A DNA stretch of 64,000 nt from Opitutus sp. (lineage in GTDB: Bacteria > Verrucomicrobiota > Verrucomicrobiia > Opitutales > Opitutaceae), in assembly GCA_039928945.1 (NCBI GenBank), contig JBDSSD010000123.1, positions 1 through 64,000 of the forward strand. The letters run 5' to 3'. The notes under the pieces are model-generated. The model did no database searches and was not told the DNA's origin. It saw only the letters and a list, made by a program, of their open reading frames with translations. The position numbers were made by a program, and so were the translations under genes. Numbering within the stretch: the stretch's first letter is position 1; each line of letters starts with the position of its first letter. Shown here one piece after another: positions 12,414 through 45,726 of this stretch.

Positions 12414-14348
12414 TTAAGCAGCGCGTTTTTCGATTTTGTCGCGCACGAGCAAGCCGAGCATCGAGTCAAGGAGACCGTTGCCAGAAGCTGCGCCAGTGAC
12501 AGAAACGTCTGGAACAATCCGAACGCCGCGATCGCCGACGGTCTGCATGAGCTGCATCACGGTGTAGCTTTGGGCGCCCAGTGATTCGACACCAGCGCGG
12601 TACGCCTCGGCCTTGGCGCTGCCGGTGGCGCGGATCGCATCCGCTTCGCCAAGCGCGCGTAGTTTGGTCGATTCGGCTTCACCATTGGCAGACCGAATCG
12701 CCGCTTGCGCGTGCAACTCTGCGATCCGAACGCCCTGATCGGCGTCGACCATCTGCTGTTGGATGTTCGCGAGGGCCGTGGCACGCACCAATTCCTGTCG
12801 CTGGCGCTGAGCGGCTTCCTGCGTCTCGTATGTTTTCTTTTCTTCCTCGGCGATCTTTCGATCCGTCTGAGTTTTCATCAGCTCGGCGGGCGGCGTGATG
12901 TCGCCGATCAGCGTATCAATCGCCTGGACATCGTACGCCGCGAGCGCGACTCGGATATGTCCGGCTGCCTCCACCTGCCGCTCACTGCGCGCATTGAGGA
13001 AATCGAGGACGGTGTGATGCTGCGCCGAATTGCGGAAATAATTTCCGACGATGGGTTGCAGCGCGTGGTCCACTAGATTTTGCATCGAACCGAGGCGCGA
13101 GATCACCTTTGGCGCGTCAAGTGCGCCGACGTGGATGATTTGTGAAACGTCCAGATTGAAGGCGAAGCCGTCGCGAGAACGCACGGTAATCGAGTTCAAC
13201 TTGTCATCGTAATGATGGGCTTCGGTGCGGTTGGCCCAGTTCAGCACGATGTTGGTCGTGGGAACGAGTTCGACGCGCATAACCCGGGTGTTGATGGGAT
13301 GTTTTCCGGGATAGAGCGGGCAGACCCAGACACCCTTGTGGCCGACGTTGACGAGGTCGCCGTGCTTGAACGCGACGCCACTCACATCCTCGTGGGCCAG
13401 GCCCACGAATGAAATCACGACGCCGACTGAGCCGATGGGGATGTTGAGCATTGCCACCTGCTCAACCTGGACGAACCACGGATTCAGATTCCAAGAGCCG
13501 GAGAGCAGCACCTGTTCCTGGAGTCCGCGGCGGCCGCCGTCTTCGATGAACGACTGTGCGTTCTGGAAGTTGTCGTGGTCGTGAATGAGCGGACCCGCGA
13601 TTTCGCCGGCATCAATGGGTCGTCCATCCAACGTGGTTACGATGCCGACCATGTCTGATTTGATTTGCGTGATCGTGAGCTGACTACGCGCCATCCCGTG
13701 GTCCTCGGCCGTGTCGGCGGTGATGATTTGGAACAGCGCCGGATTGATTCGGTAAGTGCCCGCGGTGAGCAGCCCGAGCTGCCGGCCTTTTTCGCCGCCG
13801 CCGAGCAGGAATCGCCGGGCGTCCTGGAAATTATCGCACGCCACGACCTTGGCCAGGATGCGTTCGGCTGGAATGGAGGTTCCGGCCGCAGCCACAACCA
13901 AAGCGATCTCGCCTTGGGGTACCACGACGACGTGCGACTTCGCGACCCGGTATTGCCAGAAGAATAAACCGAAGTGGAGCCCCGGCGGCAAAGTATCGGC
14001 CTGATAGCCCGCTTCCCCGGCCAGCGCGATGAATTGACCAGCGGGGAGGTTGCGGCGGGAAAACTTCTTGATGACCAAGCCCACCTGATCTTCGCGGATC
14101 ACCACGAGTCCGAGCATCAGGGGTGAGAGCAACGCAGCGAGGCCGACGAGCACGCCGCGCTCAATCCAGGTGTCAGCCAGGATCAGCGCGAGAGCGGCGA
14201 GGACGACCGCGGCCAAACCAAATAAAATACGCGCAAGCGTGGATCGTTGACTCAAGGCGATGCCCTTGAGCACGAGGCTTGCGCCCAGCAACAGAAGATG
14301 CGCGAGCAAGCTCGCGACACCGATTGAATTAAGGACCGTGGAGGTCAT
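12414..14348 (-). CDS. flotillin-family (SPFH/band-7) protein
   Basis: An N-terminal TM segment and SPFH domain are followed by a long Ala/Glu-rich coiled coil (..KIAEEEKKTYETQEAAQRQRQELVRATALANIQQQ..AEAYRAG..), typical of YqiK/FloT-like flotillins. Confidence 0.85.
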   Translation of the reverse strand: MTSTVLNSIGVASLLAHLLLLGASLVLKGIALSQRSTLARILFGLAAVVLAALALILADTWIERGVLVGLAALLSPLMLGLVVIREDQVGLVIKKFSRRNLPAGQFIALAGEAGYQADTLPPGLHFGLFFWQYRVAKSHVVVVPQGEIALVVAAAGTSIPAERILAKVVACDNFQDARRFLLGGGEKGRQLGLLTAGTYRINPALFQIITADTAEDHGMARSQLTITQIKSDMVGIVTTLDGRPIDAGEIAGPLIHDHDNFQNAQSFIEDGGRRGLQEQVLLSGSWNLNPWFVQVEQVAMLNIPIGSVGVVISFVGLAHEDVSGVAFKHGDLVNVGHKGVWVCPLYPGKHPINTRVMRVELVPTTNIVLNWANRTEAHHYDDKLNSITVRSRDGFAFNLDVSQIIHVGALDAPKVISRLGSMQNLVDHALQPIVGNYFRNSAQHHTVLDFLNARSERQVEAAGHIRVALAAYDVQAIDTLIGDITPPAELMKTQTDRKIAEEEKKTYETQEAAQRQRQELVRATALANIQQQMVDADQGVRIAELHAQAAIRSANGEAESTKLRALGEADAIRATGSAKAEAYRAGVESLGAQSYTVMQLMQTVGDRGVRIVPDVSVTGAASGNGLLDSMLGLLVRDKIEKRAA

Positions 14349-14798
14349 GAGAGGTCTCCCAAAAGCACGGCTACGCCCGCGGTATTCCCGCGGACACGGA
14401 CATGCGGCTGCGTTGGAGCGACCGTGGAGGCACCGCGAAAGCGGGCTCTAGTGGATCACCCTTCCCATTGCCGACGAGGTTAGCTGACGGGCTTGGTCCT
14501 AGGAAGTGACCTTGGTCGCAGTTACCTGCCACCTTTCGCCCCGTCCGCGGCGTTGAGCGCTGCGGAATTTGGTTCCCCCGTGAAAACGCCGAGGAAGCGG
14601 CGTCGCCTTAGGCGGTGAAAGAACAACTTACGCCGGCGACAATGTGCGCGGGACCCGAGCCGGCAAGAGTTCTTCGGACGTTCGATGCGCAACCGATCGG
14701 TGCAACGGACACATGGCCGTTTTTTTTACGAGCAAGGTACCGCGTCCAAAAGACGAATGCAGGCTGGCCGCGGGCCGCGAGGGGGTGCAATCTACCGA
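14349..14798 (+). promoter_or_regulatory. Roughly 450-nt non-coding leader upstream of the DEAD-box helicase (possible long structured 5'-UTR, or an unannotated sRNA)
   Basis: There is no convincing ORF. Several local stem-forming segments are present. deaD/csdA-type genes classically have long cold-regulated leaders. Confidence 0.3.
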
Positions 14799-16693: not shown

Positions 16694-16767
16694 GATCACC
16701 GGACAAAGACCGTCAGGTCCGAGGCCTTGACACGGCAACGGAGCGGAGGTTATTGCCCTCGCCCCGT

Positions 16768-17385
16768 ATGGAGGTCGCGCTCGATCAACCGGTGCTGGTT
16801 TTAAACCGCCTGTGGCAGGCGGTGAACGTCATCGGCGCGCGTCGGGCTTTTGGGCTGCTGGCGCGAGGTCATGCGCAGGTCGTGCATCACCACGATGAGG
16901 ACTTTCGTACGTTTGGCCTCCTCGATTGGATTGATTTCTCAACGAACAATCCGCCACTGGTGCCGCTGGAGACGGTGCATACCCCGAACCGGACAATTCG
17001 GCTGCCGCGGGTCATTCTCCTCACGTTCTTCGACAAGCTGCCGTGCAAGGAGCTCAAGCTGACGCGCAACAATATTTTCGAACGAGATAAGAACACCTGT
17101 CAGTATTGCAGCCGCGTATTACCTCGCGAACAGCTGAACCTGGACCACGTTATCCCGCGCGATTACGGCGGGAAGACGACGTGGGAGAACATCGTTTGCT
17201 CCTGCATCAAGTGTAACACGAAGAAGGCGAATCGGCTTCCGCACGAAGCTCGGCTCCGCTTGATCCGGAAACCGGTGAAACCGAAGTGGCGTCCGGTCAT
17301 CTCTCTCGTCCTTGGAACGCAGCACCGCGAAATGTGGAAAGACTTCCTCGATCTCGCGTATTGGAACGTCGAGCTCGACGAATAA
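16768..17385 (+). CDS. HNH endonuclease-family protein
   Basis: ..CQYCSRVLPREQLNLDHVIPRDYGGKTTWENIVCSCIKCNTKKANR.. carries the HNH/Cys4 motif. Confidence 0.8.
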   Translation: MEVALDQPVLVLNRLWQAVNVIGARRAFGLLARGHAQVVHHHDEDFRTFGLLDWIDFSTNNPPLVPLETVHTPNRTIRLPRVILLTFFDKLPCKELKLTRNNIFERDKNTCQYCSRVLPREQLNLDHVIPRDYGGKTTWENIVCSCIKCNTKKANRLPHEARLRLIRKPVKPKWRPVISLVLGTQHREMWKDFLDLAYWNVELDE

Positions 17386-43023: not shown

Positions 43024-43659
43024 TTACGAAGCGAGGAGCGTCGGAAAACGGCTGCGGCGAGCACTTCGCTTCATACCAATCGCCGCACACGCTACATCGA
43101 TAGCCGCGTCGCGGTACCCAACAAACTCAAGAACCCGAGCAAGGAAGCGCCGCTTGGTCGCTGTATCGATATTCATGATCGCCCAGTAGGGCGTCCCATC
43201 GATCTGGCGGGCTTGGTTGTGCCGACACGTCTCGACAATTTCCTCACGACTCATGCCCAAGTAGCGGCGACCCGTTTCCATGCTGCGGATGAACTCGCCG
43301 AAATCAGCAGGGTGGCGCGACGCAATCCAGCTGAGAAGAGCCAGATATTTTTCCGCGTCCGTAAACTTGGCTCTGAATTCCGAGCTGAGGACGAAACCGG
43401 CCAGCGGTTCGGCCGCATCAGGCGCGCCCGACGGAACGTGCAGCAGAGAGGCGAGGACCTCTCCAGGTGTCCGGTGAAAGCCCGTCGCAAGTTCCTGCAG
43501 CGCAGCGTACACCTCGTCGCTGATCTCGATCGTTTTCACGACCGTACGTTGAACCGGTTTGATCGGTTTCGCCAATTTGATCTCGACCAAAGTAGAAATA
43601 ATCGCGGCAAATGCCCGTGTCGGAGCGACTAACGAGGGGCGGCCAGATGGGGTAAACAT
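43024..43659 (-). CDS. SeqA-like protein (homolog of the hemimethylated-GATC-binding negative regulator of replication initiation)
   Basis: The N-domain aligns with E. coli SeqA (MKTIEVDDELYSYIAS..ASDILRRML): VKTIEISDEVYAALQ..PGEVLASLL. The C-domain also aligns (..GTPYWVITNTNTGRK..IEKVCGTI): ..DGTPYWAIMNIDTATKRR..IDVACAAIG. The likely true start is GTG at 43539 (VKTIE), which gives about 172 aa against 181 aa for SeqA. The track ORF adds 40 aa upstream. Confidence 0.75.
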   Translation of the reverse strand: MFTPSGRPSLVAPTRAFAAIISTLVEIKLAKPIKPVQRTVVKTIEISDEVYAALQELATGFHRTPGEVLASLLHVPSGAPDAAEPLAGFVLSSEFRAKFTDAEKYLALLSWIASRHPADFGEFIRSMETGRRYLGMSREEIVETCRHNQARQIDGTPYWAIMNIDTATKRRFLARVLEFVGYRDAAIDVACAAIGMKRSARRSRFPTLLAS

Positions 43660-45037: not shown

Positions 45038-45655
45038 TTATGCCCAGTTGAAATTGAAACTGATGCTGATGCGTTCGTCGTCGACGCGATTGGCCGCCAC
45101 TTCGTGCCGAAGCCAGCTTTCGAAGAGGATGAGGTTGCCCGCTTCGGCCGGGTACGTGACGTGGGCGCGATTCGCGGGTTTAGCGTTCGGGAGCTTGGGC
45201 GGAGCGGCCATGAATTTGCTCAGCCGCGGGTCCTCGAACTTCAACCCGGGACAGCCAGCGGGCGTAACGACGTAGTAGGTTCCGCTCAAGAAAGACAGTG
45301 GGTGCAAATGCAGCGAGTGAGCGGCCGTGGGTGGCATGATGTTGACCCAGCAATCGGTCATGCGAATCGAGCGACCGCGCAAATCCATCTCGAGCGAACG
45401 CGCGAAGGCGCGCACGTGTCGCGTGATCTTTTTTTCAAGGTCAGTGAAGCTGCTGGAAAATCGGTGCAGCTCATTCAGCGACGCGTAGCTCGTATAGCCG
45501 CCCGGATAATTTTTCTCGGACCAGCGACGACCAGCCACGTCGAAGTCGCGCAACTGCCGACACTCGGCCGCAAGACTGTCATTCAACCGATCGAGGCCCG
45601 AGTGCTGCAGGGGTTCGGAATAAATGTACGTGGGAAACCAGGCGCGAACGGGCAT
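45038..45655 (-). CDS. TIGR02466-family protein (2OG-Fe(II) oxygenase-superfamily, PhyH-like)
   Basis: ..MPVRAWFPTYIYSEPLQ.. and the C-terminal ..LILFESWLRHEV.. motif are present. Confidence 0.6.
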   Translation of the reverse strand: MPVRAWFPTYIYSEPLQHSGLDRLNDSLAAECRQLRDFDVAGRRWSEKNYPGGYTSYASLNELHRFSSSFTDLEKKITRHVRAFARSLEMDLRGRSIRMTDCWVNIMPPTAAHSLHLHPLSFLSGTYYVVTPAGCPGLKFEDPRLSKFMAAPPKLPNAKPANRAHVTYPAEAGNLILFESWLRHEVAANRVDDERISISFNFNWA

Positions 45656-45726
45656 GGCCTCGAGCAGAAATATTTCGCGGCAAACTTCAACTGGCAACGT
45701 CGCTCCGGCAAGGCCGTGGGCTTAGC

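Follow-up and report, generated by a model that had tools for sequence, protein, structure and literature searches.

A conserved, divergent member of the SeqA family in Opitutaceae of the phylum Verrucomicrobiota

We analyzed a stretch of 64,000 nucleotides from Opitutus sp., a soil/freshwater Verrucomicrobium (GenBank assembly GCA_039928945.1, contig JBDSSD010000123.1, positions 1 to 64,000; referred to below as the window), and concentrated on a minus-strand open reading frame (ORF) which an earlier note, made from the sequence alone, had proposed to encode a homolog of SeqA, the textbook case of a protein that senses the short-lived hemimethylation left on DNA by replication. The ORF was confirmed at 43024..43659 and specifies 211 amino acids when counted from its ATG codon. 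The coding sequence assigned within it and the parts of its product are as follows (all on the minus strand; pLDDT, predicted local distance difference test score).

43024..43539 (-), SeqA-like coding sequence, 171 amino acids plus stop, GTG start; placed by the Pfam, PDB and fold matches and by the starts of orthologs
43540..43659 (-), 40 codons by which the longest ORF continues in frame upstream; homolog starts map to 43539
43441..43539 (-), N-terminal domain, residues 1-33, strand KTIEI and two helices; resembles the SeqA-N dimerization/oligomerization domain
43399..43440 (-), flexible linker, approximately residues 34-47; alignment to E. coli SeqA leaves a gap of 26 columns here, and residues 36-43 have pLDDT values under 50
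43078..43398 (-), SeqA C-terminal DNA-binding domain, residues 48-154
43147..43185 (-), putative DNA-reading loop, W119-R131, WAIMNIDTATKRR; includes columns that do not vary among the 41 aligned family members
43027..43077 (-), basic C-terminal tail, residues 155-171, GMKRSARRSRFPTLLAS; residues 157-171 have pLDDT values under 50

Translation was assigned to start at GTG 43539, giving a product of 171 amino acids, because 70 orthologs begin with M/V-K-x-I-E at exactly this position; the close homologs, of which 462 were found, are 165 to 173 amino acids long. The same GTG had been chosen in the earlier note and stands, while the length given there for the product, 172 amino acids, has to be corrected by one residue. 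The codons upstream of the GTG are probably untranslated, to judge from where the homologs begin, and would belong to the 5' untranslated or promoter stretch that this gene has in common with the divergent Gly-zipper gene, so that the NCBI and Logan gene calls (211 amino acids, ATG start) are probably 40 codons too long. A scan for promoters and terminators around the gene returned no signal exceeding the shuffled background. In NCBI, the identical protein bears the name 'MAG: hypothetical protein ABIZ04_20100 [Opitutus sp.]' (MAG, metagenome-assembled genome).

By its Pfam domain, fold and architecture the protein is a member of the SeqA family, and it is not a SeqA equivalog. The Pfam model of the SeqA C-terminal domain (SeqA_C, PF03925) matched it with E=2.6e-14 and 53.7 bits (gathering score, 25.5), and matched all 41 of the aligned homologs as well (best E, 8.9e-17); the N-terminal model (SeqA_N, PF17206) gave only 11.5 bits and so stayed below its gathering score, which is 23. 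The description of the ORF as a full-length relative of SeqA was borne out by three kinds of alignment, all of which span both domains. In a phmmer search of the PDB, residues 41-193 of the ORF aligned with residues 1-161 of E. coli SeqA (3fmt_A, E=1.8e-8), SeqA proteins being the only solved structures matched by sequence; a profile of the 41-sequence family aligned over positions 1-154 with SeqA residues 1-162 (E=2.1e-11); and tblastn against PLSDB aligned residues 1-154 with annotated seqA genes from Proteus, E. coli, Aeromonas and Klebsiella (E between 3e-7 and 2e-4). Identity to gammaproteobacterial SeqA was 20-25% in the latter search and about 20% to E. coli SeqA. The motifs quoted in the earlier note, KTIEISDEVY, GTPYWAIMNIDTATKRR and IDVACAAIG, are all present in the ORF, and the predicted structure of the C-domain has the three-dimensional fold of SeqA. 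The protein is almost certainly a DNA-binding protein of the SeqA family.

The domain assignment itself is not new, because annotation pipelines already tag such proteins with PF03925, the name used by JGI (Joint Genome Institute) being 'negative modulator of initiation of replication'. What appears to be previously undescribed is a conserved, divergent verrucomicrobial clade outside the Dam clade, distinguished by its short linker, the Asp in its loop and its basic tail; we found no mention of SeqA in Verrucomicrobia in the literature examined. Published work treats SeqA and Dam as conserved together in part of the Gammaproteobacteria, and even takes SeqA as an indicator that Dam is present, in agreement with the earlier note's view of it as tied to Dam-positive Gammaproteobacteria (PMC4786541).

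In the AlphaFold2 model, the N-terminal domain contains helices at residues 8-21 and 25-32, and its strand and two helices agree in topology with SeqA-N. When the N-terminal profile alone was searched against the PDB, SeqA-N (1xrx) was the top match, with an E value of 1.7 that is not significant; hhalign of the first 40 amino acids against the N termini of 62 other SeqA-family sequences gave a probability of 99.1% and an E value of 4.8e-19, and the domain is therefore probably homologous to the SeqA N-domain. Further N-terminal matches, to the VapB antitoxin, the type IV secretion system SepA family, PriA 3'BD and DUF7557, were rejected as sub-threshold noise or generic strand-helix similarity. 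The linker comprises about 12 amino acids, compared with 30 (Lys34-Lys63) in E. coli SeqA (PMC2691817). The DNA-binding loop of the latter, which carries N150 and N152 (PMC2691817), reads WVITNTNTGRKCS and corresponds to WAIMNIDTATKRR in the Opitutus protein. In the 41-sequence family alignment, N123 (the equivalent of N150), R91 (the equivalent of R118), W119 and the basic residues K129-R130-R131 that follow the loop are invariant. Beyond the point where E. coli SeqA ends, the Opitutus protein continues with the 17-residue tail GMKRSARRSRFPTLLAS, the mean net charge of this region being about +4 over 120 homologs.

The gene lies upstream of dgkA (PF01219), beyond which lptF/G are found, so that the earlier placement of the ORF next to dgkA in a Verrucomicrobiota genome was correct, the identical NCBI protein also coming from Opitutus sp. 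In a taxonomic scan with one genome per GTDB species, relatives of the protein were found in at least 83 species genomes, all of them labelled Opitutus, Opitutaceae, Opitutales, Opitutia or Verrucomicrobia. The carriers include the cultured strains Opitutaceae bacterium MBA3-11 and D2-102 and Verrucomicrobiae bacterium DG1235, as well as chromosome-level MAGs, some from long reads; OY970130.1, OZ257259.1, OZ245769.1 and DS990592.1 (strain DG1235) are among the complete or nearly complete sequences with the gene. Among the 82 orthologous loci, co-located genes were dgkA in 39, lptF/G in 45 and ligT in 32. The most consistent neighbor (54 of the 82 loci) is a gene for a putative 2-oxoglutarate-Fe(II) oxygenase (PF13759), which in the window lies three genes upstream at 45038-45697 (-). 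The seqA-pgm gene pair is absent at the Opitutus locus. The ratio of nonsynonymous to synonymous substitution rates (dN/dS) against orthologs was 0.03-0.09, which amounts to strong purifying selection. Because its distribution is broad, its housekeeping synteny conserved and its divergence from gammaproteobacterial SeqA deep, the gene is a vertically inherited, near-core gene of Opitutaceae and not a recent import.

We then placed the protein within the wider family. An exhaustive hidden Markov model search of 1.84 billion representative proteins yielded 466 clusters (at 50% identity) at E<=1e-3 and 21 at E<=1e-30, and the members fall into several types by the sequence of the loop. The Opitutaceae have the type MN-IDT, and TN-TNT, TN-NNT or TN-SNT occurs in the canonical SeqA of Gammaproteobacteria (E. 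coli, Vibrio, Colwellia and a homolog in a fur-fldA-seqA-pgm arrangement); a further group has TN-xDT, and TT/VT-LDN marks a group whose sole named member is from Chthoniobacteraceae (Verrucomicrobiota). A member of the TN-xDT type, P0324 (L089 3139-3633; both Pfam domains, loop TNADT), is encoded on an apparent mobile element, whose other genes specify a phage-type integrase, the anti-restriction protein ArdA, an Mrr-like nuclease and a restriction-modification enzyme of the MmeI type; chromosomal housekeeping loci are thus not the only places where genes of the SeqA family occur. Another divergent homolog, P0334 (L088 10001-10543), is of the gammaproteobacterial type, having the N-x-N loop TNSNT and a fur-fldA-(hydrolase)-seqA-pgm arrangement; it is 36% identical to P0166, a representative of the TN-xDT-type group. 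From these sequences, canonical SeqA would seem to be marked by loop type and synteny rather than by overall identity. The 466 clusters, the variety of loop types and the presence of at least one member on a mobile element show a SeqA family far more diverse than one would gather from the literature.

How the Opitutus protein might act can be sketched from its homology to SeqA and its retention of N150, R118 and the basic patch. Dimers formed through the N-domain would present two C-domains, which would bind short sites lying close together in pairs on duplex DNA; on DNA that has just been replicated, these would most likely be hemimethylated GATC or another methylated site resembling GATC. 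With a linker of 12 residues, the two sites would have to lie about one helical turn apart, as they do for the delta(41-59) variant of E. coli SeqA, and the basic tail would probably add non-specific affinity for DNA. The outcome would be the marking or sequestration of fresh DNA, at the origin and/or in the region behind the forks, in a SeqA-like manner, and the partner methyltransferase would be encoded elsewhere in the genome. We advance this complete mechanism only tentatively, as something that could well be otherwise, and the same caution applies to its core, i.e., that the protein reads hemimethylated GATC and thereby controls replication, which we hold to be possible, if short of probable.

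A number of observations weigh against reading of hemimethylated GATC, and several of them concern the protein itself. It reached 53.2 bits with the NCBIfam equivalog model NF008389 (replication initiation negative regulator SeqA), far below the cut-off of 185. The position of E. coli N152 is occupied by an Asp (D125) that is invariant in the family alignment, whereas the Asn is kept in all of the canonical SeqA proteins of Gammaproteobacteria compared (E. coli, Vibrio, Colwellia and the seqA-pgm-linked homolog). R116 and T117 of E. coli SeqA, which we take to be further DNA contacts, align with Thr/Gly. In the D7-E9-R30 network of the N-domain, E9 is kept and D7 and R30 are replaced by Ser and Ala; the filament residues T18, I21 and A25 correspond to Ala, Phe and Pro, and R70, R73, E74 and D79 of the inter-dimer aggregation surface to Glu, Ala, Gly and Ser (for the roles of the network, filament and aggregation residues in E. 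coli, see PMC2691817).

Other observations on the same side concern the methylation on which such a reading would depend. Pfam analysis of 41 window proteins, namely, the SeqA-like ORF and 40 of the 48 other predicted genes, found no DNA methyltransferase among them; a phmmer search with E. coli Dam (used against ORFs of at least 80 amino acids) matched no ORF of the window, and no window ORF longer than 180 amino acids contained a DPPY-type motif, which upholds the earlier statement that no dam gene is present in these 64 kb. Extended to the 82 loci (1.34 Mb), the same search gave no Dam match at E<=10 within 10 kb of the gene. Six ORFs with DPPY or NPPY motifs were dismissed as methyltransferase candidates since Pfam identified them as ABC transporter, FecR, aldo-keto reductase and similar proteins. 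The lack of linkage to dam says little, however, because dam and seqA lie apart in E. coli, too. GATC is plentiful, at 7.3 sites per kb, and its observed/expected ratio is 0.97 in the window and 1.00 in 1.31 Mb (the window plus loci L003-L082); it is neither avoided nor enriched. Its abundance and the lack of selection against it count in favor of the mechanism; such neutral statistics do not discriminate between the readings. Clusters of four GATC sites in 120 bp are common because the density amounts to one site per 126 bp. Relative to TCGA, pairs of GATC sites showed no helical phasing of 10-11 bp, and no conserved GATC cluster was present upstream of the gene among 70 orthologous upstream regions. 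Autoregulation through upstream GATC sites was likewise discarded, such sites not being conserved and the two GATCs in codons 3-7 simply encoding T-I-E-I. As to published methylomes, single-molecule real-time (SMRT) sequencing of two freshwater Opitutae MAGs from Lake Biwa, which may or may not carry the gene, detected no GATC methylation, ACGAG being the only methylated motif in BS10, which has a single methyltransferase, and BS6 having no motif (PMC6329791); that of five marine Verrucomicrobia MAGs, which again may or may not carry it, detected neither motifs nor methyltransferases (PMC8919816). We found no methylome of Opitutaceae in the literature examined, Blow et al. 2016 included. The failed equivalog cut-off, the Asp at N152, the replaced interfaces, the missing linkage to a methyltransferase in 82 loci, the neutral GATC frequencies and the SMRT data showing MAGs free of GATC methylation mean that the origin sequestration by GATC methylation implied in the earlier note is not established, and gene context lends no support to the association with a restriction-modification system that it had also considered. 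The alternative named there, a GATC-reading protein put to another use, may apply.

Many of the same facts fit a protein which is a dimeric DNA binder with the SeqA fold and a specificity different from Dam-type hemimethylated GATC, a reading that it would have lost or never possessed, directed at another methylated motif or at unmethylated DNA. Its lineage would lack Dam, and its role there would be that of a regulator or a nucleoid-associated factor. We regard this as a serious possibility, again somewhat below an even chance and roughly equal in likelihood to the reading of hemimethylated GATC. The replacement of N152 by Asp, invariant in the Opitutaceae clade, is shared with the Chthoniobacteraceae-type clade, which has lost N150 too (TTLDN), loop sequences vary between the SeqA subfamilies, neither the oligomer interface nor the aggregation interface is conserved, the gene has no linked methyltransferase, and MAGs of Verrucomicrobia and Opitutae devoid of GATC methylation have been published. 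Set against this, N150, R118 and the loop geometry as a whole are kept, Asp and Asn are isosteric, and the separation of dam from seqA has its precedent in E. coli. Moreover, binding of hemimethylated GATC is the sole biochemically known activity of the SeqA fold (PMC2691817).

Two other explanations fare much worse. A ribbon-helix-helix antitoxin or repressor binding DNA through its N-terminal strand, with the SeqA-like C-domain as an accessory, would account for the weak N-terminal VapB-type matches (Pfam PF02697, E 0.007-0.05, in 18 of the 41 members) and for a Foldseek match to VapB 5x3t_A over 42 columns; yet the VapB-type matches are all below threshold, no toxin gene is adjacent, the N-terminal MKTIE(V/I)DDxVY is a hallmark of SeqA proteins themselves, and the strongest conservation lies in the loop of the C-domain, which leaves this explanation very improbable. 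Even less credit is due to a recent acquisition from a Gammaproteobacterium or a mobile element, in which case the gene would be a passenger with no lineage-specific role. Homologs of SeqA do exist on mobile elements, as exemplified by P0324 with its neighboring ArdA, integrase and MmeI-type enzyme genes. Against such an origin stand the merely 20-25% identity to gammaproteobacterial SeqA, the occurrence in at least 83 species of Opitutaceae/Opitutales with conserved housekeeping synteny, a codon-position G+C profile close to that of the neighbors (third-position G+C of 0.65 compared with 0.62-0.77), and the absence of phage matches and of any integrase or mobile-element gene among the scanned window proteins; recent horizontal transfer is effectively refuted by synteny, breadth of distribution and divergence.

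In our judgment, the chances are evenly balanced that the Opitutaceae and the Chthoniobacteraceae-type lineages hold an ancient verrucomicrobial SeqA-like clade which either is accompanied by a conserved orphan methyltransferase not recognized to date, the replication-coupled reading of methylation then applying, or reads another DNA mark or sequence through its Asp loop and basic tail with no GATC methylation involved. If true, either option would overturn the notion of SeqA as an invention specific to the Dam clade. A homolog conserved in at least 83 species would mean methylation-timed control of replication in Verrucomicrobia, the cell cycle of which is almost unstudied, or a second DNA-reading function of the SeqA fold.

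Some further features were recorded in passing. GTAC and CTAG are under-represented in Opitutaceae DNA (observed/expected 0.61 and 0.37, respectively, in the 1.31 Mb of the window plus L003-L082), and the avoidance of GTAC might reflect a widespread restriction specificity in this family. The window contains a gene for a stand-alone HNH endonuclease of 210 amino acids (PF01844/PF14279) at 16753-17385 (+), between genes for a DEAD-box helicase and an ACT-domain protein, with no partner methyltransferase nearby. A cyclic di-AMP riboswitch (Rfam RF00379; 53.6 bits, gathering score 38) is located at 14454-14624 (-), directly upstream of the gene for a 644-amino-acid SPFH/Band-7 protein at 12414-14348 (-).

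Compared with the SeqA proteins of E. coli and Vibrio cholerae (PF17206 plus PF03925; PDB 3FMT, 1LRR, 1IU3 and 3SK7), the Opitutus protein has the same two-domain architecture and about equal length. It shares with E. coli SeqA the N-terminal MKTIE..DE.Y motif, the equivalents of N150 and R118, the GT.YW motif ahead of the loop and the basic K/R patch behind it, and it differs in the Asp at N152, the linker of about 12 amino acids, the extra basic tail of 17 amino acids and the oligomer-interface residues, which are not conserved; its gene adjoins dgkA and lptF/G instead of forming a seqA-pgm operon, and its host belongs to Verrucomicrobiota, outside the 'dam clade'. In linker length, the closest parallel is E. 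coli SeqA delta(41-59) (PDB 3FMT), with approximately 11-12 residues, which binds only GATC pairs that share one DNA face, with a very restricted spacing (PMC2691817). That variant is an engineered deletion, whereas the Opitutaceae linker is natural and of different sequence, the likeness being one of length.

The nearest cluster outside Opitutaceae, at 100 bits to the family profile, is the Chthoniobacteraceae-type group (loci L084-L087; P0154, P0280, P0281 and P0293), its one named member being annotated in NCBI as 'hypothetical protein [Chthoniobacteraceae bacterium]'. Its members differ from the window protein in the loop TTLDN, with N150 lost too, in their length of about 188 amino acids, in sharing only about 30% identity with it, and in their neighbors, which are glnB-glnA or a GDSL lipase gene upstream. 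Both groups have Asp at N152, a similar basic C-terminal tail (RRSHARSRLLASL in the Chthoniobacteraceae type) and genes in housekeeping contexts with no methyltransferase, and these resemblances suggest a verrucomicrobial SeqA-like lineage spanning Opitutaceae and the Chthoniobacteraceae-type group.
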